Source: a virus
Lineage: Duplodnaviria > Heunggongvirae > Uroviricota > Caudoviricetes
DNA: 64,000 nucleotides
Reading direction: 5' to 3' (one strand)
Virus record (IMG/VR): IMGVR_UViG_2851955134_000009
Numbering within the stretch: position 1 is the stretch's first letter; each line of letters begins with the position of its first letter. Shown here piece by piece: positions 8,415-53,409 of the stretch. The translations under genes were made by a program, and so were the position numbers. The notes under the pieces were generated by a model that was given only the letters and a program-made list of their open reading frames with translations, was not told the origin of the DNA and made no database searches.

Positions 8415-8839
8415 TACGTGCGCTGGCGGTAGTGGCGGCGCTGGCACTCGTTGCGCTGGGCTGGCAGTCGTGGCGGCTTAACAGCGCCAGCCATACCATC
8501 GAAACGCAGCGCGCGGCGCTGAAAAGTAAAGCGCACGAACTAACGAAGAAAAATAGCCAGCTGATCAGTCTGTCCATTCTGGCTGAAACCAACAACCGGG
8601 AGCAGGCGCGGCTCTACGCCGAAGCAGAACAGACCAGCGCACAGCTGAGACAACGACAACGCCGGATCGAGGAACTGAAACGTGAGAACGAGGATTTACG
8701 CCACTGGGCTGATACTCCTTTGCCTGCTGACATTATCCGGCTGCGGGAACGTCCGGCACTCACCGGAGGTGCAGCTTACCGTCAGTGGTTGTCCGCGAGT
8801 GACGCCGTGTCGGCTGGAGCAGGCAGCACCGCGCACTAA
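8411..8839 (+). CDS. lysB: i-spanin (Rz/LysB-like)
   Basis: N-terminal TM segment and coiled-coil-rich periplasmic part; a lipoprotein ORF is embedded in the +1 frame. Confidence 0.65.
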   Translation: MIRALAVVAALALVALGWQSWRLNSASHTIETQRAALKSKAHELTKKNSQLISLSILAETNNREQARLYAEAEQTSAQLRQRQRRIEELKRENEDLRHWADTPLPADIIRLRERPALTGGAAYRQWLSASDAVSAGAGSTAH

Positions 8840-8918
8840 CGGTGATCTGAATGCGTTGCTGGATGAAACGGAGGCCGCCTGGGCGGTCTGTGCAGACAAA
8901 GTGGACATGATTATTTGA
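8682..8918 (+). CDS. lysC: o-spanin (Rz1/LysC-like), 3' end truncated by the Mu-like insertion
   Basis: Lipoprotein-like N-terminus (LLTLSGCG). The ORF stops at the TGA supplied by the first three bases of the inserted element. Joining the flanks restores 18 more codons (96 aa total) that overlap the R start. Confidence 0.65.
   Translation: MRTRIYATGLILLCLLTLSGCGNVRHSPEVQLTVSGCPRVTPCRLEQAAPRTNGDLNALLDETEAAWAVCADKVDMII
8910..8915. repeat. ATTATT direct repeat, left copy (putative target-site duplication)
   Basis: Identical hexamer directly abuts both termini of the Mu-like element (8910-8915 and 46511-46516). Confidence 0.6.
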
Positions 8919-8959
8919 TGCGCCGCGCGATAAATGCGCTCTATCTTGTGCGATAAATG
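8916..8959. repeat. Mu-like element terminal repeat, left-hand copy in window coordinates (putative transposase-binding sites)
   Basis: TGATGCGCCGCGCGATAAATG...GTGCGATAAATGG; matches the reverse complement of 46467-46510 at positions 1-4, 7, 9, 12, 14-21, 33-35 and 37-43. Confidence 0.55.
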
Positions 8960-8993
8960 GCATCCACGCGGCGTTTCATTATTTGAAAAAGAA

Positions 8994-9566
8994 TTACATT
9001 TCAGGTTCCGTTATGACAGTCCCAACAGGGTGATAGCGGTAGATCGTTGACAGTCCAATATCATAGATAATTGCCAGCCGCTTTCTGTCATACCCTTTCT
9101 GGAGCAATCTTGCGATCTGCTCATGCTGCTCCTTCGTCAGTTTCGGGCGACGTCCTCCAACTCTCCCTTGTGCTCGCGCAGCAGCCAGTCCTGCCAGCGT
9201 GCGCTCAACTATCAGTTCACGCTCCATTTCTGCCAGTGCACCCATCATATGAAAAAAGAACCTTCCCATCGGAGTGCTGGTATCGATTGAATCCGTCAGA
9301 CTGCGAAAATTGACACCTTTTGCGCGTAGCTCTTCTGTGAGAGCAATGAGGTGTTTCATTCTTCTACCCAACCGATCCAGCTTCCAGACCACCAATGTAT
9401 CCCCTCTTTTAAGGCACTTTAAAGCGCGTTTCAGGCCTGGTCGTTCCGACTTGGTTCCGCTCATTTTGTCCTCAAAAATCTGTTCACATCCTGCGCACAT
9501 TAATGCATTGCGTTGCAAATCTGTGTTTTGGTCATTTGTTGACACACGTATGTAGCCAATCAGCAT
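8994..9566 (-). CDS. serine DNA invertase (Gin/Pin/Hin family)
   Basis: 190 aa from MLIGYIRVSTNDQ...; catalytic-serine N-terminal domain and C-terminal HTH typical of invertases. Start placed at the internal Met because the longer track ORF overlaps the fibre segment. Confidence 0.85.
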   Translation of the reverse strand: MLIGYIRVSTNDQNTDLQRNALMCAGCEQIFEDKMSGTKSERPGLKRALKCLKRGDTLVVWKLDRLGRRMKHLIALTEELRAKGVNFRSLTDSIDTSTPMGRFFFHMMGALAEMERELIVERTLAGLAAARAQGRVGGRRPKLTKEQHEQIARLLQKGYDRKRLAIIYDIGLSTIYRYHPVGTVITEPEM

Positions 9567-9622
9567 TAAAAATACTCCCTTTTGAGTGGTTAAAGTACTG
9601 AGATAATGTGAGGAGGATTTGA

Positions 9623-9648
9623 GAGATAAACGTTGGTTTGGGGGAAGG
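9623..9648. other. invertase crossover site (hix/gix-like), Mu-like cassette, invertase-proximal
   Basis: gagataaacgttggtttgggggaagg; core AAACCAACGTTT is shared with the sites at 11224, 50937 and 52762, and is inverted relative to 11224. Confidence 0.5.
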
Positions 9649-10099
9649 CTCTGCATTGCCTGTTGGTGTACCGGTTCCATGGCCCACCGCCACACCGCCA
9701 GCAGGCTGGTTACAGTGCAACGGAGCTACGTTCACCAAAGAACAATATCCTGTTCTGGCCAGAGTCTACCCGACCCTCCGTCTTCCCGATTTGCGCGGTG
9801 AGTTTATCCGTGGATGGGACGGTGGTCGCAAGGTTGATACCGGGCGTGCGCTACTTTCATTTCAGGAAGGGACTATCGTATCCGGTTTTGATGATAATGA
9901 TACCGGAGATATCAGTTCGCTCGGCTCTACACAATACGGATTTGGTGACGCTTTAACCTCTAATCAACTGGGGGTCATAAATGGCAAAAAGTGGATATTT
10001 GATGCATCCTCTAAAGGTGCACAAAGATATGACTGGTGGGCTTATGTATCAGCTCGCCCCCGCAATATCGCATTTAACTATATCGTGAGGGCGGCGTGA
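9638..10099 (+). CDS. alternative tail-fibre C-terminal (tip) segment, promoterless inverted cassette
   Basis: Begins with GEGSALPVGVPVPWPTATPPAGW, the same junction peptide found inside the fibre gene at 10720-12489; opposite orientation; ends NIAFNYIVRAA. Confidence 0.6.
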   Translation: MGEGSALPVGVPVPWPTATPPAGWLQCNGATFTKEQYPVLARVYPTLRLPDLRGEFIRGWDGGRKVDTGRALLSFQEGTIVSGFDDNDTGDISSLGSTQYGFGDALTSNQLGVINGKKWIFDASSKGAQRYDWWAYVSARPRNIAFNYIVRAA

Positions 10100-10105
10100 T
10101 ACCGT

Positions 10106-10720
10106 TCAGCCGGCAAGCGCCAGTGGCGCTTCCGGCCAGCTGATTTCAGGTGCCTTGCTGATATCCAGTGCGTTCAGCTCGTCGATATAATCCAGCACGG
10201 CGTTCAGTTTTGCCGTTTCTTCTGGTTTCAGACTGCGACCTGCCCGCAGTTTGAGGTTGATGAGGTCGATGGACTTCATCGCCTGATCCACCCGTTCCTG
10301 GCGTTGCAGTCTGGCAACCTCCAGCTCTGCGGCTCGCTGCCGTTCAGTATCGGTTACCCACGCCTCACCGTTCCAGGTATCCCATGGCGTGGCCGGCTGT
10401 TTTGTGGTGGTGTCCGCCGGGTAATCACCCGGCTGGGTAATCTGAACGGGAGTACCGTTCTCCGTGCTGTATACCGTCTCGCCGCGGTGATCAGGCACAT
10501 GTTCCCACCCGTTCAGCGTGGCAGTCCGGCAAACCACGTAACCCGAAATTGCCTCCGGCGGTGCATCGGCGCACGAATGTGCCGGAGTACCCACCCCAAG
10601 GGCGAGATACTCCACAGAGGATGAGGTGTATTCCCGGGTTTCCTCGTCATAGTGATATACAGTGATATCGCCCGCTACAGTGGCGATACCGTTTTCATCC
10701 AGAACTGCAGTGTTACTCAT
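10106..10720 (-). CDS. tail fibre assembly protein (chaperone)
   Basis: 204 aa immediately downstream of the fibre gene; homologous to the 200-aa protein at 51671-52273. Confidence 0.75.
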   Translation of the reverse strand: MSNTAVLDENGIATVAGDITVYHYDEETREYTSSSVEYLALGVGTPAHSCADAPPEAISGYVVCRTATLNGWEHVPDHRGETVYSTENGTPVQITQPGDYPADTTTKQPATPWDTWNGEAWVTDTERQRAAELEVARLQRQERVDQAMKSIDLINLKLRAGRSLKPEETAKLNAVLDYIDELNALDISKAPEISWPEAPLALAG

Positions 10721-12489
10721 TAAACTGCCCTCACAATGTAATTAAGTGCAATGCTACGGGGTCTGACAGTGATACCCTTCGCATACCCGCTTCTGATAGA
10801 GGTCAGAATAGTAGCCTGCATACCATTGTCTGACATTGCCACGACAGGATCGCTGAATGTTGTCCCGTCCGGCATTTTAAAGCTGCCCTCACGAAGGTCT
10901 GTAATGGAATCTTCATTGTTGAATCCCATGCCGACTATCCCCGAGGTTCCCGTAGTGTCCTGGTTATAATAATCCAGCATTGCTGTTCTTAACAGCGTTG
11001 CCCCTTGTGCGGACAGCAACTTACGTCCTGTATCAACTTTGCGCCCGTCGTCCCATCCACGGATAAACTCACCGCGCAAATCGGGAAGACGGAGGGTCGG
11101 GTAGGCTCTGGCCAGAACAGGATATTGTTCTTTTGTAAAGGCGCGCCCGTCGCACTTTAACCAGCCTGCTGGCGGTGTGGCGGTGGGCCACGGAACAGGC
11201 ACACCAACGGGTAGCGCCGAGCCTTCTCCTAAACCAAGGTAATTGAGGACATCTTTTATACTGCCCTTAGCGATAATAGCGCGACCAATAGCTGTAAGGG
11301 TTGCCAGCGCTGCGCGGTCTGCTCCGGTAAAATAAGGCAACCGATCTGCTGCAGTGGCAAGTCCTGCCAGAGCAGTGAGCGTGGCATCTGCCGGTTGTTT
11401 TCCGTTTGCCAGATCGTATGCAGCCTTGACCGCTTTCGGTGTGGCGGCCAGTATTTCAGACGTGCTGTTGATGGCACTGCTCAGTTGTACGGTGCCTTTT
11501 GCCGTCAGCGAGGCCGCAGGCACTCCCGTTATCTGACTCCACGGGTGAGTGTGGCTGGCAGGCGCCTTGCCGGCTGCCAGGTCGTATGCAGCCTTGACCG
11601 CTTTCGGTGTGGCGGCCAGCGTTTCAGACGTGCTGTTGATGGCACTGCTCAGTTGTACGATCCCTTTACGGGTCGTTGTTGCATCCTGGGCTGTGTATTT
11701 TCCCCGGGCCAGATCATACGCGATTTTCACAGCCTTCGGCGTGGCAGCCTCAGTTTCTGATTGACTGTCCGTGGCGCTGCTCAGTTGTACGGTGCCTTTT
11801 GCCGTCAGTGAAGCCGCAGGCACTCCCGTTATCTGACTCCACGGGTGAGTGTGGCTGGCAGGCGCCTTGCCGGCTGCCAGGTCGTATGCAGCCTTGACCG
11901 CTTTCGGTGTGGCGGCCAGCGTTTCAGACGTGCTGTTGATGGCACTGCTCAGTTGTACGATCCCTTTACGGGTCGTTGTTGCATCCTGGGCTGTGTATTT
12001 TCCCCGGGCCAGATCATACGCGATTTTCACAGCCTTCGGCGTGGCAGCCTCAGTTTCTGATTGACTGTCCGTGGCGCTGCTCAGTTGTACGGTGCCTTTT
12101 GCCGTCAGTGAAGCCGCAGGCACTCCCGTTATCTGACTCCACGGGTGAGTGTGGCTGGCAGGCGCCTTGCCGGCTGCCAGGTCGTATGCAGCCTTGACCG
12201 CTTTTGGTGTGGCGGCCAGCGTTTCAGAGGTGCTGTTGGTGGCACTGCTCAGTTGGGTGAACCCCTTAGCTGTCAGTGTCGCGTCCGGGTGGTTACGGGA
12301 ACGTACGTGTTCAGCCAGTGACTGTGCGGCTTCCTCCGTTTTCTTCTTCAGCCATTTCGTCCTGTTTGCCAGTTGCCGGGGGGCTCGATTTGATATCCCG
12401 TCTGCACCACCCAGAACCGGATCTGATGTCTCCAGTTGATAGATATTTTCTTCCCACTTTTCTGTTTCATTCAGGTTTCCCATAATCAA
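10720..12489 (-). CDS. tail fibre protein with internal tandem repeats
   Basis: 589 aa; Ala/Thr-rich repeats of about 100 aa; C-terminal tip segment begins at the crossover junction (LGLGEGSALPVGVPVPWP). Confidence 0.8.
   Translation of the reverse strand: MIMGNLNETEKWEENIYQLETSDPVLGGADGISNRAPRQLANRTKWLKKKTEEAAQSLAEHVRSRNHPDATLTAKGFTQLSSATNSTSETLAATPKAVKAAYDLAAGKAPASHTHPWSQITGVPAASLTAKGTVQLSSATDSQSETEAATPKAVKIAYDLARGKYTAQDATTTRKGIVQLSSAINSTSETLAATPKAVKAAYDLAAGKAPASHTHPWSQITGVPAASLTAKGTVQLSSATDSQSETEAATPKAVKIAYDLARGKYTAQDATTTRKGIVQLSSAINSTSETLAATPKAVKAAYDLAAGKAPASHTHPWSQITGVPAASLTAKGTVQLSSAINSTSEILAATPKAVKAAYDLANGKQPADATLTALAGLATAADRLPYFTGADRAALATLTAIGRAIIAKGSIKDVLNYLGLGEGSALPVGVPVPWPTATPPAGWLKCDGRAFTKEQYPVLARAYPTLRLPDLRGEFIRGWDDGRKVDTGRKLLSAQGATLLRTAMLDYYNQDTTGTSGIVGMGFNNEDSITDLREGSFKMPDGTTFSDPVVAMSDNGMQATILTSIRSGYAKGITVRPRSIALNYIVRAV
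11224..11249. other. invertase crossover site (hix/gix-like) inside the Mu-like fibre gene
   Basis: ttctcctaaaccaaggtaattgagga, at the constant/variable junction of the fibre protein. Confidence 0.5.
11521..12120. repeat. two identical 300-bp tandem copies within the tail-fibre gene (diverged partial copies flank)
   Basis: Sequence from 11521 onward is identical to that from 11821 onward; a third, diverged copy starts at 12121; in frame (100 aa per unit). Confidence 0.8.
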
Positions 12490-13076
12490 CTGCTCCCGTG
12501 GTTATAACTGCCATCATGGATGGCGGTATTGTTATAGCGAATGGCCACAGACTGATACTCCAGGCTGGCCAGATGGCAGCGGGCCGGTGCAAATGCAGCC
12601 AGCGTCTGACGCAGCATCGCGGCCTGATCGTTAGTAATGGGCTGTTTCAGAATAACGCGATAAACTGCCCAGGCGGCTGCATCTCCATGAACAAACAGTC
12701 CGTTATAGCTGCGATTGCCGTCGTAACTGAGACGACCTGTGCCTTCAATCAGATCCACTTCACCAAAGCCAAAACGGCGGATAACTTCCCGGATTGACCA
12801 CGGCGTCCCTTTATACCGGTGCAGTTCGATGGCTGCTTTTATAAGCATGCGGCGAACATCGTCCGATTCCGCCAGCTCCCAGCCATCGCCAGACAGTGAG
12901 AACTGCTCGCCCAGCCATGGCAGCGCGGAACTGTCGACGATATCGACGAGAAAGACCATCAGTACGCTCAGGTCGATGTTATCCAGCCGTCCTGCCAGTC
13001 TTCCCAGCGTCCTGAGACTGATATCACCCTCAAGCGGTGGCGGGAGTTGTAATGGCTCAGTCATCAGACACTCCAC
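12486..13076 (-). CDS. baseplate protein (P2 gpI-like)
   Basis: 196 aa between baseplate J and the tail fibre gene, as in P2-type baseplate modules. Confidence 0.65.
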   Translation of the reverse strand: MECLMTEPLQLPPPLEGDISLRTLGRLAGRLDNIDLSVLMVFLVDIVDSSALPWLGEQFSLSGDGWELAESDDVRRMLIKAAIELHRYKGTPWSIREVIRRFGFGEVDLIEGTGRLSYDGNRSYNGLFVHGDAAAWAVYRVILKQPITNDQAAMLRQTLAAFAPARCHLASLEYQSVAIRYNNTAIHDGSYNHGSS

Positions 13077-46466: not shown

Positions 46467-46510
46467 TATTTATCTCACGGATCCCCCTTCATTTATCTCA
46501 TGTCTGATCA
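46467..46510. repeat. Mu-like element terminal repeat, right-hand copy in window coordinates (putative transposase-binding sites)
   Basis: Reverse complement reads TGATCAGACATGAGATAAATG...GTGAGATAAATAA, matching the end at 8916. Confidence 0.55.
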
Positions 46511-46516
46511 ATTATT
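46511..46516. repeat. ATTATT direct repeat, right copy (putative target-site duplication)
   Basis: Identical to 8910-8915. Confidence 0.6.
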
Positions 46517-49304: not shown

Positions 49305-49902
49305 TCTGCTGCCACCGGGTTCAACACCACTGGAGCGCCGACTGGCGCAAACCTGCAGCGGGATTTCTGATCTGCAGGTGCCGCTTCGTGATTTGTGGAA
49401 TCCGGCAACCTGTCCGGTCAGTTTCCTGCCTTATCTCGCCTGGGCGTTCTCTGTGGATCGCTGGGACGAGGGCTGGACAGAAAGCGTCAAGCGCCAGGTG
49501 GTGAAGGATGCTTTTTATATTCATCAGCATAAAGGGACCACCAGTGCCGTGCGGCGGGTGGTGGAGCCGTTCGGATTCCTGATCCGCATTATTGAGTGGT
49601 GGCAGACCGGAGAAACACCGGGCACGTTTCGCCTGGATATCGGCGTGCAGGACCAGGGCATCACTGAAGATACCTATCTGGAACTTGAGCGACTGATAAG
49701 CGATGCCAAACCATGTAGCCGCCACATGATCGGCATGTCCATCAATCTGCAGACCAGCGGCCCGCATTGGGTGGGAGCCGCCAGCTATCTTGGCGAAGAA
49801 ATCACGATCTATCCGTATATCAACGAAACGATTATTTCCGGTGGCACCGCGCATGAAGGCGGGGCGGTCCATGTTATTGACACAATGAGAGTGAATCCAT
49901 GA
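49297..49902 (+). CDS. I: baseplate protein (P2 gpI-like)
   Basis: 201 aa. Confidence 0.75.
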   Translation: MNSLLPPGSTPLERRLAQTCSGISDLQVPLRDLWNPATCPVSFLPYLAWAFSVDRWDEGWTESVKRQVVKDAFYIHQHKGTTSAVRRVVEPFGFLIRIIEWWQTGETPGTFRLDIGVQDQGITEDTYLELERLISDAKPCSRHMIGMSINLQTSGPHWVGAASYLGEEITIYPYINETIISGGTAHEGGAVHVIDTMRVNP

Positions 49903-51257
49903 GCACAAAATTTTATACCCTGCTGACGGATATTGGCGCGGCGAAACTTGCCAGCGCCGCCGCGCTCGGTGTGCCGCTAAAAATTACCCATATGGCGGTG
50001 GGCGATGGCGGTGGAGTATTGCCAACGCCGGACGCAAAGCAGACGGCACTGGTAAATGAGAAACGCCGGGCTGCGCTGAATATGCTTTATATCGACCCGC
50101 AGAACAGCAGCCAGATTATTGCCGAACAGGTGATCCCTGAAAACGAGGGCGGTTGGTGGATACGTGAAGTGGGCCTGTTTGATGAGTCAGGGGCATTGAT
50201 TGCCGTGGGCAACTGCCCGGAAAGCTATAAGCCGCAACTGGCTGAAGGTAGCGGGCGCACTCAGACCGTGCGCATGGTGCTGATTACCAGCAGCACGGAC
50301 AATATCACCCTGAAAATCGACCCTGCTGTAGTGCTGGCAACCCGCAAGTATGTGGATGACAAGGCACTGGAGCTGAAGGTGTACGCGGATGATCAGATGG
50401 CAAAACATCTTGCCGCACCGGACCCGCATTCACAGTACGCGCCAAAAGCCAGCCCGACATTTACCGGAACCCCCAAAGCGCCAACGCCAGCGGCGGGGAA
50501 TAATACCACGCAGGTTGCGACCACTGCGTTTGTACAGGCGGCACTGACGGCCCTTATTAATGGTGCGCCAGCCACGCTGGACACGCTGAAAGAAATAGCC
50601 GCAGCCATTAACAATGATCCGAATTTCAGTACCACCATTAACAATGCGCTGGCACTAAAAGCACCGTTGTCGAGTCCGGCACTCACCGGAACGCCAACAG
50701 CCCCCACGGCGGCGCAGTCGGTCAACAATACACAGATTGCCACTACGGCTTTTGTGAAATCGGCGATTGCAGGAATGGTGGGTTCTGCACCTGCTGCACT
50801 GGATACACTGAACGAACTGGCGGCGGCACTGGGGAATGATCCGAACTTTGCCACGACAATGCTTAATGCGCTGGCAGGTAAACAACCGCTGGACAATACG
50901 CTTACCAATTTGAGTGGAAAGGATGTAGCTGGTCTTCTCACATACCTTGGTTTAAGAGCAAGCGGGCAGTACACCGATAATTTGTTATTTACAGGTCCTG
51001 ATGGTCTTAAGATTCAGGTGTTTCGCCGGACGCTCGCAAATTTGACTACTGTCGGTGTAGTAAATTCTGTGCCAGTGACTTTCCCTGTCCCGTTCCCTGT
51101 TAATTGCTGGGGCGTTTTTTCTACCAAATTAACATGGGTTCAGATAACTAACTCATGCGAGTGGGTAAGCAATACAGGATTTACCGCTCAGGTCATGATG
51201 AATATTGCTGTAAATACAAACACCTCAGACGCTATGTTTTTAGCTATAGGATATTAA
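49899..51257 (+). CDS. H: tail fibre protein (P2 gpH-like)
   Basis: 452 aa; N-terminal part conserved with the Mu-like fibre, C-terminal tip differs beyond the junction peptide (LLTYLGL). Confidence 0.8.
   Translation: MSTKFYTLLTDIGAAKLASAAALGVPLKITHMAVGDGGGVLPTPDAKQTALVNEKRRAALNMLYIDPQNSSQIIAEQVIPENEGGWWIREVGLFDESGALIAVGNCPESYKPQLAEGSGRTQTVRMVLITSSTDNITLKIDPAVVLATRKYVDDKALELKVYADDQMAKHLAAPDPHSQYAPKASPTFTGTPKAPTPAAGNNTTQVATTAFVQAALTALINGAPATLDTLKEIAAAINNDPNFSTTINNALALKAPLSSPALTGTPTAPTAAQSVNNTQIATTAFVKSAIAGMVGSAPAALDTLNELAAALGNDPNFATTMLNALAGKQPLDNTLTNLSGKDVAGLLTYLGLRASGQYTDNLLFTGPDGLKIQVFRRTLANLTTVGVVNSVPVTFPVPFPVNCWGVFSTKLTWVQITNSCEWVSNTGFTAQVMMNIAVNTNTSDAMFLAIGY
50937..50962. other. candidate invertase crossover site inside P2-like H (diverged)
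   Basis: Reverse complement cttgctcttaaaccaaggtatgtgag shares the AAACCAAGG core with the other three sites but is less conserved. Confidence 0.35.
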
Positions 51258-51258
51258 T

Positions 51259-51699
51259 ATGAATCGTTTTGTGTTCAGTCCATCTGAGTCCCGTTTTTAT
51301 GCCATCGAGTGGCAGGCTGATTATGTTGATAATAATTGTTGGCCACATGATGCCATTAACGTTAGTGACAGCATTTATTATGAGTTTTCCGGCACTCCCC
51401 CTACAGGTAAGCAACTTATAACTTTAAATAACATGCCAGCATGGGGTGATATTCCTCCACCTACACGAGAAGAATTAATTGTCGCTGCTGATGTGGAGAA
51501 GCAAAAAAGAATAGATTTAGCCAATGATTACATGAACGGTAAGCAATGGCCTGGTAAAGCAGCTATTGGTCGTCTGAAAGGTGAGGAACTGGCACAATAT
51601 AATTTGTGGCTGGATTATCTGGACGCACTGGAGCTGGTCGATACCGCCAGTGCGCCAGATATTGAATGGCCTACGCCTCCGGCAGTTCAGGCCAGATGA
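51259..51699 (+). CDS. G: tail fibre assembly protein (P2 gpG-like)
   Basis: 146 aa immediately downstream of H. Confidence 0.7.
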   Translation: MNRFVFSPSESRFYAIEWQADYVDNNCWPHDAINVSDSIYYEFSGTPPTGKQLITLNNMPAWGDIPPPTREELIVAADVEKQKRIDLANDYMNGKQWPGKAAIGRLKGEELAQYNLWLDYLDALELVDTASAPDIEWPTPPAVQAR

Positions 51700-52273
51700 C
51701 ATCTGGCGCGGTGCTGGTATCAGTTGCCGTCACCGCGTCAATGTAATCCAGTACAGCGTTAAGGCTGGTTGTTTCTGCCTGCGTCAGTTTACGTCCGGCC
51801 TGCAATTTCAGCTGAATCAGACTGATTGAAGCCATTGCAGTATCAATCAGTGACTGGCGCTGTGCTTCTGCTGCATCTACTGCGGCGCTATGCTGTGCTT
51901 CGGTATCCGTCACCCATTTCTCACCATCCCATTTATCGTATGGCGTTAACGGGGCGATAGTGGTTGTATTATCAGGGTAATCACCCGGAGCTGTGATTTC
52001 TTTTGATTCTCCTGTTTCGGTGCTAAAGACGATTTCACCGCGATGGTCTGGCACATATTCCCATGAGTTAAAATCTACAGATCGGCAGATTGCATAACCA
52101 GCTTTGTATGTGCCAGGGGCATCTAAACAGGAATATGCAGGGATACCGACACCAACGGCAAGATATTCAGTTGATGTGGAAATATATTCCCGTGTTTCGC
52201 CATCATAGTTATAGACGGTAATATTCCCCGCCTTTGTAGCAATAAACTCGCTATTTAATACAGCGTTATCCAT
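51671..52273 (-). CDS. alternative tail fibre assembly protein (inverted cassette)
   Basis: 200 aa, convergent with G; roughly half of its residues match the Mu-like chaperone at 10106-10720 by visual alignment. Confidence 0.7.
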   Translation of the reverse strand: MDNAVLNSEFIATKAGNITVYNYDGETREYISTSTEYLAVGVGIPAYSCLDAPGTYKAGYAICRSVDFNSWEYVPDHRGEIVFSTETGESKEITAPGDYPDNTTTIAPLTPYDKWDGEKWVTDTEAQHSAAVDAAEAQRQSLIDTAMASISLIQLKLQAGRKLTQAETTSLNAVLDYIDAVTATDTSTAPDVIWPELPEA

Positions 52274-52815
52274 TATGCAGCCCTCACGATATAGTTAAAT
52301 GCAATATTCCGTGGACGGGTTTCATTTATCCCATATGCTGTTGTTCTCTGATTCCCGACAAAATATCCATTTGGATTAGAAGATACAGAATAATCATCAA
52401 AATCAAGTGGGCTATCAGCACCCGGCGTCAGGCTTGCAATATATCCTCTTCCCATAACTTCTGATGCTGGTATTTCTTTTGTACGATAATCACTAACTCT
52501 GAAGAGCTGCCCTTGGTGGGTGTGTGATTCCACTCCTCCATTCTGAAGACTTAGCAAGGCACGTACAGCATCAATACCACGCCCGTCATCCCAGCCACGA
52601 ATAAACTCACCACGTAAATCAGGCAATTTATTTGTCGGATAAGCCTTTGCCAGTTCCGGGTATTCTTCAGCAGAAAAAGCGGCACCGTTGCATTTCAGCC
52701 AGCCTGTTGGCGGAGTGGCTGAAGGCCACGGAACAGGCACCCCAACCGGTAATGCAGAGCCTTCTCCCAAACCAACGTTTATGAAAATGCAGAGATAACG
52801 GCTAACTGGCATCAT
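52273..52815 (-). CDS. alternative tail-fibre C-terminal (tip) segment, promoterless in current orientation
   Basis: Contains GLGEGSALPVGVPVPWPSATPPTGW junction peptide and NIAFNYIVRAA C-terminus; homologous to the Mu-like fibre tips. Confidence 0.6.
   Translation of the reverse strand: MMPVSRYLCIFINVGLGEGSALPVGVPVPWPSATPPTGWLKCNGAAFSAEEYPELAKAYPTNKLPDLRGEFIRGWDDGRGIDAVRALLSLQNGGVESHTHQGQLFRVSDYRTKEIPASEVMGRGYIASLTPGADSPLDFDDYSVSSNPNGYFVGNQRTTAYGINETRPRNIAFNYIVRAA
52762..52787. other. invertase crossover site (hix/gix-like) adjacent to the P2-like invertase
   Basis: ttctcccaaaccaacgtttatgaaaa, 26-bp imperfect dyad. Confidence 0.5.
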
Positions 52816-52836
52816 CCCCGGTTTTTATTCAGGGGA

Positions 52837-53409
52837 TTGATCATGCTTATTGGCTATGTACGCGTGTCAACAAATGACCAGAACACCGATTTGCAACGTA
52901 ATGCACTGAACTGCGCGGGATGTGAGCGGATTTTTGAGGACAAAATCAGTGGCACTAAGTCCGACAGACCGGGGCTGAAAAAACTACTCAGGACACTATC
53001 GGCAGGAGACACGCTGGTTGTCTGGAAGCTGGACAGGTTGGGGCGCAGTATGCGGCATCTTGTTACGCTGATAGAAGAGTTGCGCCAGCGTGGTGTGAAT
53101 TTCAGAAGCCTGACTGACAGTATTGATACCAGTACCCCAATGGGCCGTTTCTTTTTTCATGTCATGGGTGCCCTGGCTGAAATGGAACGCGAACTGATAG
53201 TTGAACGTACCAGGGCAGGGCTGGCTGCAGCTCGTGCCAAAGGCAGAGTAGGTGGACGCCGTCCTAAGTTGACCACCGAACAGTGGGCACAGATTGGGCG
53301 TTTACTCGAGGCCGGAGAATCAAGACAGCGTATTGCACTGATTTTTGATGTAGGCGTTTCTACCATTTATAGAAAATTTCCGGCAAATAAGATCAATGAA
53401 TCCCCCTGA
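52837..53409 (+). CDS. serine DNA invertase (Gin/Pin/Hin family)
   Basis: 190 aa, MIMLIGYVRVSTNDQ...; most residues match the Mu-like invertase at 8994-9566 by visual alignment. Confidence 0.85.
   Translation: MIMLIGYVRVSTNDQNTDLQRNALNCAGCERIFEDKISGTKSDRPGLKKLLRTLSAGDTLVVWKLDRLGRSMRHLVTLIEELRQRGVNFRSLTDSIDTSTPMGRFFFHVMGALAEMERELIVERTRAGLAAARAKGRVGGRRPKLTTEQWAQIGRLLEAGESRQRIALIFDVGVSTIYRKFPANKINESP

Follow-up and report, generated by a model that had tools for sequence, protein, structure and literature searches.

The exchange of tail-fibre tips by an invertase is a textbook case of host-range bet-hedging in phages. The Min system of p15B reportedly carries out multiple inversion between serial collar-domain tips with one tail-fibre assembly chaperone (tfa) gene, and fibre inversion is said to occur in the tailocin carotovoricin as well. 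Goldberg et al. (2014, PMC4272514) studied a pathogenic E. coli strain whose P2-like prophage has a tail-fibre inversion involving three repeats. PacBio reads of E. coli EC958 (ST131) captured a fibre segment of its prophage Phi2 in both orientations (Forde et al., 2014, PLoS One, PMC4134206); such loci were described there generically as a mirror-image tip together with its cognate minor fibre gene, and the single chaperone went unremarked (PMC4134206). More tips than chaperones were noted in xenorhabdicin loci, for which a "common chaperone" was suggested (PMC13280938).

Here, we analyse a fibre cassette in a stretch of 64,000 nucleotides from a tailed virus (IMG/VR record IMGVR_UViG_2851955134_000009), which in its full length is called the window. 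An earlier, sequence-only reading had placed an invertible tip cassette with a Gin-like invertase and only one chaperone gene at the end of a Mu-like element. The features of the locus are as follows.

8916-8960, no strand: left prophage terminus, starting with TGATGCG and holding two GCGATAAATG repeats
8994-9566, minus strand: gene for a Gin-family serine DNA invertase of 190 aa (Pfam Resolvase, PF00239, 8e-51; HTH_7, PF02796, 1e-12)
9567-9620, no strand: spacer between the invertase start and the proximal crossover site, read from the sequence
9621-9646, no strand: proximal 26-bp hix/gix-like crossover site, GAGAGATAAACGTTGGTTTGGGGGAA on the plus strand, central dinucleotide at 9633-9634
9633-11237, no strand: invertible segment of 1,605 bp, defined by an exact inversion between two assemblies of strain 83972
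9638-10099, plus strand: tip B, an alternative fibre 3' end of 153 aa, unexpressed in the window orientation (Pfam Collar, 9e-16)
10106-10720, minus strand: tfa, tail-fibre assembly chaperone of 204 aa (Pfam Caudo_TAP, 3e-26)
10720-11236, minus strand: tip A, the variable 3' end expressed in the window orientation, a collar-domain tip (Pfam Collar)
11224-11249, no strand: distal 26-bp crossover site inside the fibre gene, TTCTCCTAAACCAAGGTAATTGAGGA, central dinucleotide at 11236-11237
11237-12483, minus strand: constant 5' part of the fibre gene, its start at 12483 taken from the RefSeq annotation of an identical locus
10720-12483/12489, minus strand: whole tail-fibre gene

The cassette of the window holds these two crossover sites, which are inverted relative to each other and have the common central dinucleotide AA/TT; the proximal one adjoins the invertase gene. 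The distal site had been located exactly before, while the proximal one had been set at 9623-9648, out of register by 2 nt. The invertase shares 77% identity with Gin of Mu and begins with MLIGYIRVSTNDQ, the catalytic serine being at position 9; the annotation of identical loci calls it a "recombinase family protein". Across 44 invertase genes, synonymous-site variation in codons 1-30 was 0.18-0.26 compared to 0.33 overall, with no sharp dip that could be assigned to a Fis enhancer. The constant fibre part contains three 300-nt tandem repeats (11398-12297), which encode Phage_fiber_2 repeats, and a 229-nt inverted repeat with 86% complementarity has its arms at 9630-9858 and 11012-11240. According to the alignment, tip A and tip B have in common a collar domain of approximately 75 aa and the last 14 residues with the C-terminal motif RPRNIAFNYIVRA, and differ in the central insert, presumed to be the receptor-binding part. 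The cassette contains one Caudo_TAP gene only, as had been noticed earlier. This tfa is translationally coupled to tip A through a TAATG overlap, whereas tip B runs towards it from the other side, leaving 6 nt and no crossover site between the two stop codons. This gap was inspected for traces of a second tfa; it has these 6 nt only, and hence no such remnant exists there. A sequence search of Tfa against the PDB gave no match.

The element carrying the cassette is indeed Mu-like and, more precisely, a BcepMu-like transposable prophage (8916-46510) that is inserted into a P2-like prophage. Its Pfam set includes rve (the DDE transposase), AAA_22 (a MuB-like ATPase), Phage_Mu_Gam and Portal_Mu, and the transposase shares 98.5% identity with its counterpart in Escherichia phage PhiKM, which is classified in Bcepmuvirus, and 68% with the one of BcepMu. 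PhiKM is the closest named phage; its partial record ends inside the fibre gene and was uninformative for comparing the cassette. The inverted left terminus as BLAST query did not find the right prophage end, which was read from the sequence as ...GATCA at 46510; ATTATT is present on both flanks, in keeping with a short duplication of the target. Matching cassettes in other genomes of E. coli start at window position 8916 and are flanked by unrelated DNA, for example kbl, rstB and aroA. Hundreds of genomes contain the same cassette, inserted at many places, and it also occurs on plasmids; given these many different sites, the element spreads as an active transposable phage.

The DNA switch is real, inverts in nature and has already been described. 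When the segment is inverted in silico, the constant fibre part joins tip B in frame. Of the two assemblies of E. coli 83972, one has the homologous 1,605 bp exactly inverted relative to the other; there are 0 mismatches, and the flanks are identical. The sister-strain pairs MS1737/MS1494 and PKF11/PKF4 are likewise in opposite states. Among 5,426 complete E. coli genomes, a junction of the invertase with tip B is present in 179 and one with tip A in 225. The proximal site is identical in sequence to "Phi2_3prime" and the reverse complement of the distal site to "Phi2_5prime" of EC958 (Table 3, PMC4134206). Hence, both orientations, which the sequence-only reading had proposed to look for, are on record in the 83972 assemblies, in sister strains, in complete genomes and in the published EC958 reads, and, given the 83972 and EC958 data, an invertase unable to recombine the two sites seems excluded. 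Nevertheless, annotations of ST131 strains list the constant fibre part as a pseudogene, and yet the segment still inverts; therefore, inversion alone is no proof of function.

We surveyed 54 Gin-like invertase loci from viral contigs (IMG/VR), which are not independent of each other since they belong to few phage lineages. Exactly one long Tfa was found in 11 of 12 cassettes composed of collar tips only (2-8 tips), while a long and a short Tfa were present in 21 of the 26 cassettes in which a collar tip is combined with a tip of another class. In five mixed cassettes, the non-collar tip has no own Tfa; it is Gp53-like_C in L042, L062, L084 and L090 and an unclassified tip of 210 aa in L074. 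On P1-like plasmids, a single Tfa accompanies 3-4 collar tips. Where relatives share both invertase and Tfa with the window, 3-4 tips are present, and close relatives show three or four crossover sites; a second invertase lineage (approximately 84-86% identical) goes up to 8 tips and uses a different Tfa. Thus, both invertase lineages show the single-Tfa layout, which occurs on Mu-like, P1-like and still other backbones. A separate contig scan with the invertase protein yielded 5 loci only. One of these, the Samsonia locus L018, was set aside as an example, as an IS element disrupts it and it holds no Tfa. The Klebsiella locus KP12_2 was considered as a parallel as well; it is not a true one because its alternative tip is non-collar and is followed by a small unknown ORF.

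From these comparisons a rule emerges, according to which the count of Tfa genes follows how many tip classes a cassette holds and not how many tips; no statement of this rule was found in the literature examined. Judged from the surveyed sequences, one Tfa for two collar tips is the usual layout of this tip class and no oddity. The locus had been presented as a departure from the classical arrangement, which is correct with respect to Mu and P1 with their one chaperone per tip, but it does not depart from the norm, as the all-collar loci, the P1-like plasmids and EC958 Phi2 demonstrate. Moreover, when tip-Tfa pairs with Tfa N-terminal domains at least 85% identical were compared (n=65), the tip inserts were less than 40% identical in 44 of the 65 comparisons.

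We regard it as probable, at roughly 60%, that the cassette is a Gin/Pin/Min-type host-range switch of a BcepMu-like prophage, in which one collar-class Tfa serves both tips. The invertase (8994-9566) recombines the inverted sites 9621-9646 and 11224-11249 and flips the 1,605 bp, by which the constant fibre part is joined in frame either to tip A, the state of the window, or to tip B. The 204-aa Tfa would be specific to the collar class of the tip and not to its variable insert, so that one copy could serve both tips. The window represents the minimal two-tip version of an all-collar cassette. Such a shared, class-specific chaperone was one of three explanations offered before and is the best supported of them, to judge from the common collar and C-terminal motif, the pairing of similar Tfa proteins with different inserts and the all-collar survey. 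The P1-like plasmids count in its favour as well, as do the collar tips without an own Tfa, which are intact and under purifying selection. We infer that this Tfa folds tip B and is also made when tip B is on.

Another reading assumes that only tip A needs the single Tfa and that tip B can fold and form trimers with no Tfa at all. It has several points in its favour. The collar domain also occurs in T4 gp37, which is not known to have a Caudo_TAP partner. All 42 of the 42 collar tips without an own Tfa are intact, with a median pairwise dN/dS of 0.09 in the insert, and homologues of tip B without an own Tfa are likewise intact (dN/dS 0.11-0.15), i.e. these tips are under purifying selection though they are never co-oriented with Tfa. 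The non-collar tips without own Tfa in the five mixed cassettes can be understood in the same way, as can the 2026 study of xenorhabdicin, where a tail-fibre gene alone sufficed to set the target specificity and the authors suggested that there is either a common chaperone or none that is essential (PMC13280938). However, in other E. coli Mu-like prophages (L009-L011) a tip whose insert is 90% identical to that of tip B is directly followed by its own 200-aa Tfa of the same class, and in Enterobacter (L013) a tip with a 65%-identical insert also precedes a 200-aa same-class Tfa. The Tfa of the E. coli tip is, for its part, only 55% identical to the window Tfa, a point against the shared chaperone. 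The earlier suggestion of a chaperone-independent tip B is weakened because such a close counterpart has its own Tfa elsewhere. In addition, near-identical Tfa proteins that occur with unrelated inserts argue against a Tfa dedicated to tip A. We therefore consider chaperone independence of tip B rather unlikely.

The shared chaperone poses a question of supply. Tip B and tfa face each other and no crossover site separates them. With tip B on, tfa is therefore always antisense to the fibre operon, and its transcription would then need another promoter. The consensus sigma-70 scan of 8900-12600 detected no two-hexamer promoter. The spacer contains an extended -10-like motif, TGAGATAAT (9599-9607, plus strand), which faces into the segment and might serve here; it is a post-hoc lead, and its conservation does not extend to the other invertase lineage with a single Tfa. 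It is conceivable, albeit doubtful, that TGAGATAAT is a fixed spacer promoter that transcribes tfa only in the tip B-on state, that the switch hence reroutes the chaperone supply together with the choice of tip, and that collar cassettes generally rely on an orientation-independent universal Tfa. If true, such a Tfa would let collar-tip cassettes grow to 8 tips.

The antisense position of tfa and the missing promoter hit could also be taken to mean that the tip B-on state is a dead end, in which a second chaperone gene was deleted and the segment still flips, giving phage without working fibres; the continued inversion next to the annotated fibre pseudogene of ST131 would agree with that. The intact state of the 42 collar tips without own Tfa, with a dN/dS of about 0.09, speaks against it, as does the same layout in two invertase lineages, several backbones and cassettes of up to 8 tips. 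The presence of the element at many insertion sites, and thus its spread as an active transposable phage, is a further point against it. We regard a dead end as quite improbable.

A chaperone could also be provided in trans by another prophage, in the window by the Tfa of the P2-like prophage (51671-52273, 200 aa). It belongs to the same class as the window Tfa and is 59% identical to it over the full length, members of this class occur together with very different inserts, and plus-strand transcription from the P2-like lysis genes would enter the Mu-like end and the segment in this window. On the other hand, late genes of a co-resident prophage are not normally expressed during the lytic growth of another phage. 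The identical cassette lies beside kbl, rstB, aroA and further genes and on P1-like plasmids, so a P2-like neighbourhood is not a constant feature of its insertion site. The proposed reliance on the P2-like chaperone is thus unnecessary, given the many insertion sites and the plasmids at which the same cassette occurs, and we consider it very improbable.

Returning to one Tfa for all collar tips, the rule raises the question how the one chaperone is made, or dispensed with, when tfa is antisense to the fibre operon. The practical stake is the design of phage or tailocin host ranges by means of collar-type tips: should one chaperone be enough, new tips could be introduced without an own helper gene.

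Compared to the described systems, EC958 Phi2 has identical 26-bp crossover sequences and the same Tfa family, tip A, tip B and BcepMu-like backbone, and its invertase (WP_000904922.1) falls into the same group of approximately 99% identity as the window invertase. It differs in having tip X besides the other two, with three sites and a 2,067-bp segment, and in a constant fibre part annotated as broken. The G segment of Mu and the C segment of P1, inverted by Gin and Cin, respectively, resemble the window in that the invertase gene follows the fibre operon in the same orientation, immediately beyond the segment, and in that the 26-bp sites are inside the fibre gene. In contrast, Mu has S-U and S'-U', i.e. 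a chaperone for each tip and another tip type, whereas the window has two collar tips and one Tfa. Tip choice among alternative fibre C-termini by DNA inversion is also common to the P2-like prophage of Goldberg et al. and to tailocins, which have different backbones, while the xenorhabdicin loci are without a local invertase. In the Min system of p15B, related P1-like phage-plasmids and the Pin system of e14, serial collar tips with a crossover site each are combined with one tfa per cassette as in the window, and plasmid pB2C_96 carries the invertase WP_000904922.1 and the Tfa WP_000072167.1, both of which are also annotated in the Mu-like prophage of 83972. The difference is one of number: the Min and Pin types have 3-6 tips and sites, and the window has the minimal two.

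The tail-fibre cassette at the end of the BcepMu-like prophage represents, with two tips, the minimal form of a known and widespread all-collar inversion cassette, and the family to which it belongs has already been reported to invert. It is built around an imperfect inverted repeat of 229 nt (arms 9630-9858 and 11012-11240, 86% complementarity), each arm of which has a 26-bp hix/gix-type crossover site at its outer end. The two sites are mutually inverted and have the central dinucleotide in common. The sequence-only reading had placed the second site exactly, but the first one (9623-9648) was two bases out of register; the invertase, the fibre tip, the one chaperone and the alternative tip that it had described are all supported by gene and domain annotation.

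Features of the BcepMu-like prophage and of its cassette
8916 (TGATGCG...) to 46510 (...GATCA): BcepMu-like prophage, about 37.6 kb, termini TGAT...ATCA
8994-9566, minus strand: serine recombinase/invertase, 190 aa, Resolvase and HTH_7 domains
9621-9646: proximal crossover site, 26 bp, GAGAGATAAACGTTGGTTTGGGGGAA on the plus strand
9638-10099, plus strand: alternative tip (tip B), a promoterless collar-domain tip
10106-10720, minus strand: tfa, the single Caudo_TAP (tail-fibre assembly chaperone, Tfa) gene
10720-12483: fibre gene, its last ~170 codons forming the expressed tip (tip A)
11224-11249: distal crossover site, 26 bp, TTCTCCTAAACCAAGGTAATTGAGGA on the plus strand

The stop codons of tip B and tfa are convergent and 6 nt apart, and inversion of 9633-11237 in silico fused tip B in frame to the constant fibre part. 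The latter contains three 300-nt tandem repeats (11398-12297; copies 90% and 82% identical to the first). Fibre gene length varies among otherwise near-identical loci (1,764, 1,785 or 1,836 nt), perhaps because these repeats have expanded or contracted.

The proposal that the segment inverts has been borne out, and both orientations were found. In two independent assemblies of E. coli 83972 the prophage sits in the same disrupted rstB gene, and the 1,605 bp between the central dinucleotides are exactly inverted in one relative to the other, with 0 mismatches and identical flanks. Opposite states were also found in the sister-strain pairs MS1737/MS1494 and PKF11/PKF4, and the invertase adjoins tip B in 179 and tip A in 225 of 5,426 complete E. 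coli genomes. Forde et al. 2014 (PMC4134206) give the same two 26-bp sequences for Phi2, a prophage of E. coli EC958 of which both orientations were assembled from PacBio reads; hence, the switch was already known. The RefSeq record of EC958 contains the invertase WP_000904922.1, which is also annotated in AR_0055, 83972 and pB2C_96, together with three tips (A, B and a third, tip X) and a Tfa from the same family. In ST131 strains the constant fibre part is annotated as fragments or pseudogene (EC958, locus L099, 3279-4412; AR_0055, locus L002, 3795-4877) and the tip segment still inverts (PMC4134206). Inversion alone is therefore no proof of a functional phage.

The carrier is a transposable prophage: it encodes an rve-type transposase along with a MuB-like ATPase, Gam and a Mu-type portal. 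Comparison of its transposase with those of Escherichia phage PhiKM, a phage assigned to Bcepmuvirus, and of BcepMu gave 98.5% and 68% identity, respectively. Given this gene content, these identities and the termini, the earlier label "Mu-like element" is acceptable and BcepMu-like is more precise. The prophage is flanked on both sides by ATTATT (8910-8915 and 46511-46516) and interrupts a P2-like prophage between its lysis and tail genes; in other E. coli genomes, the neighbours of the same prophage end include kbl, rstB and aroA. The insertion supplies the end of the last lysis-region ORF of the P2-like prophage (8682-8918), whose tail genes start near 46500.

How a single Tfa could serve both tips can be approached through the tips themselves. 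Collar tips without their own Tfa are, judging from their coding sequences, maintained as proteins: in our survey 42/42 read open from crossover site to stop and retain the N-Y/F-I-V-R motif at the C-terminus, and their variable inserts show a median pairwise dN/dS of 0.09 (<0.5 in 44/44 usable comparisons; 0.11-0.15 for tip B-type tips). Tip B matches the collar region of T4 gp37 and a solved short tail fibre. Tips A, B and X and the collar tip of the P2-like prophage share the first 75 or so residues and the last 14 and differ only in the middle. Moreover, when only pairs with Tfa directly after the tip were compared, Tfa N-terminal domains were at least 85% identical in 65 comparisons, in 44 of which the tip inserts were <40% identical (L038 versus L056: 99% and 17%). 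In other E. coli Mu-like prophages a tip with 90% insert identity to tip B has its own 200-aa Tfa after it, and in Enterobacter a tip with 65% insert identity is likewise followed by Tfa; tip B-type tips are thus normally accompanied by a Tfa of this class. Of the options that had been raised for the second tip, the shared tip ends, the Tfa comparisons and the Tfa after tip B-like tips speak for a shared chaperone, specific to the tip class, rather than for chaperone independence. A common chaperone or non-essential chaperone activity has similarly been suggested for xenorhabdicin fibres (PMC13280938). Supply in trans by the Tfa of the P2-like prophage, 59% identical to the cassette Tfa, is possible in this strain; it does not serve as a general answer, because the cassette occurs at many insertion sites and on plasmids.

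A shared chaperone would have to be expressed in both states. No crossover site separates tip B from its convergent neighbour tfa, so switching tip B on always leaves tfa antisense to the fibre operon. A consensus scan of 8900-12600 found no two-hexamer sigma-70 promoter. By eye, we spotted post hoc an extended -10-like motif, TGAGATAAT (9599-9607, plus strand), in the spacer that separates the invertase gene from the proximal site; it is directed into the invertible segment, is followed by GAGGAGG and is conserved only within the invertase lineage of the window, with no equivalent in the spacers of other invertase lineages. Were it a promoter, transcripts from it would cover the detached tip A fragment and tfa when tip B is on, and we regard it as a lead, a candidate promoter for tfa.

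The P2-like prophage has a classical invertible cassette of its own.

Features of the P2-like cassette
49899-53409: whole cassette, with a fibre with Gp53-like tip and 146-aa Tfa, and a convergent 200-aa Tfa and collar tip
50935-50960 and 52762-52787: crossover sites
52837-53409: invertase, 77% identical to that of the Mu-like prophage

Since its proximal site, TTCTCCCAAACCAACGTTTATGAAAA, also closely resembles the Mu-like one, either invertase may act on the sites of the other cassette. In a Klebsiella relative, phage KP12 clone KP12_2 (L101, 24-2851; transposase 92% identical), the layout is that of the BcepMu-like cassette, with a non-collar alternative tip; the ORF after this tip, small, unannotated and at least 71 aa long, has no Tfa similarity and may encode a helper of another kind. 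Some E. coli Mu-type prophages (L009-L011, 5001-7174) end in a two-tip, two-Tfa cassette with no invertase gene beside it and bacterial genes directly after.

The sequence-only reading had treated a cassette with one chaperone as exceptional, which did not hold. In close relatives that encode WP_000904922.1 or WP_001576683.1, invertases of the window's group, the tips are more numerous but Tfa remains single: AR_0055, EC958 and plasmid pB2C_96 have three tips and pCUVET20-PYO4.3 four. Furthermore, with a purpose-built HMM we mapped crossover sites, tips starting at them and Tfa genes in 80 Gin-like invertase loci from IMG/VR, 54 of which had enough upstream sequence to be counted. Exactly one long Tfa was present in 11 of the 12 collar-only cassettes, with 2, 3, 4, 5, 6 or 8 tips, whereas the 26 cassettes mixing collar and other tip classes had long and short Tfa in 21 cases and long alone in 5. 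Hence, chaperone gene number follows the number of tip classes, not of tips, among these loci, which come from a few phage lineages and are non-independent. Set against Mu, which has two chaperones, U and U', and against the P2-like cassette of the same window, with two Tfa (146 and 200 aa), the single chaperone of the BcepMu-like cassette is unusual, but not among cassettes of its own class.
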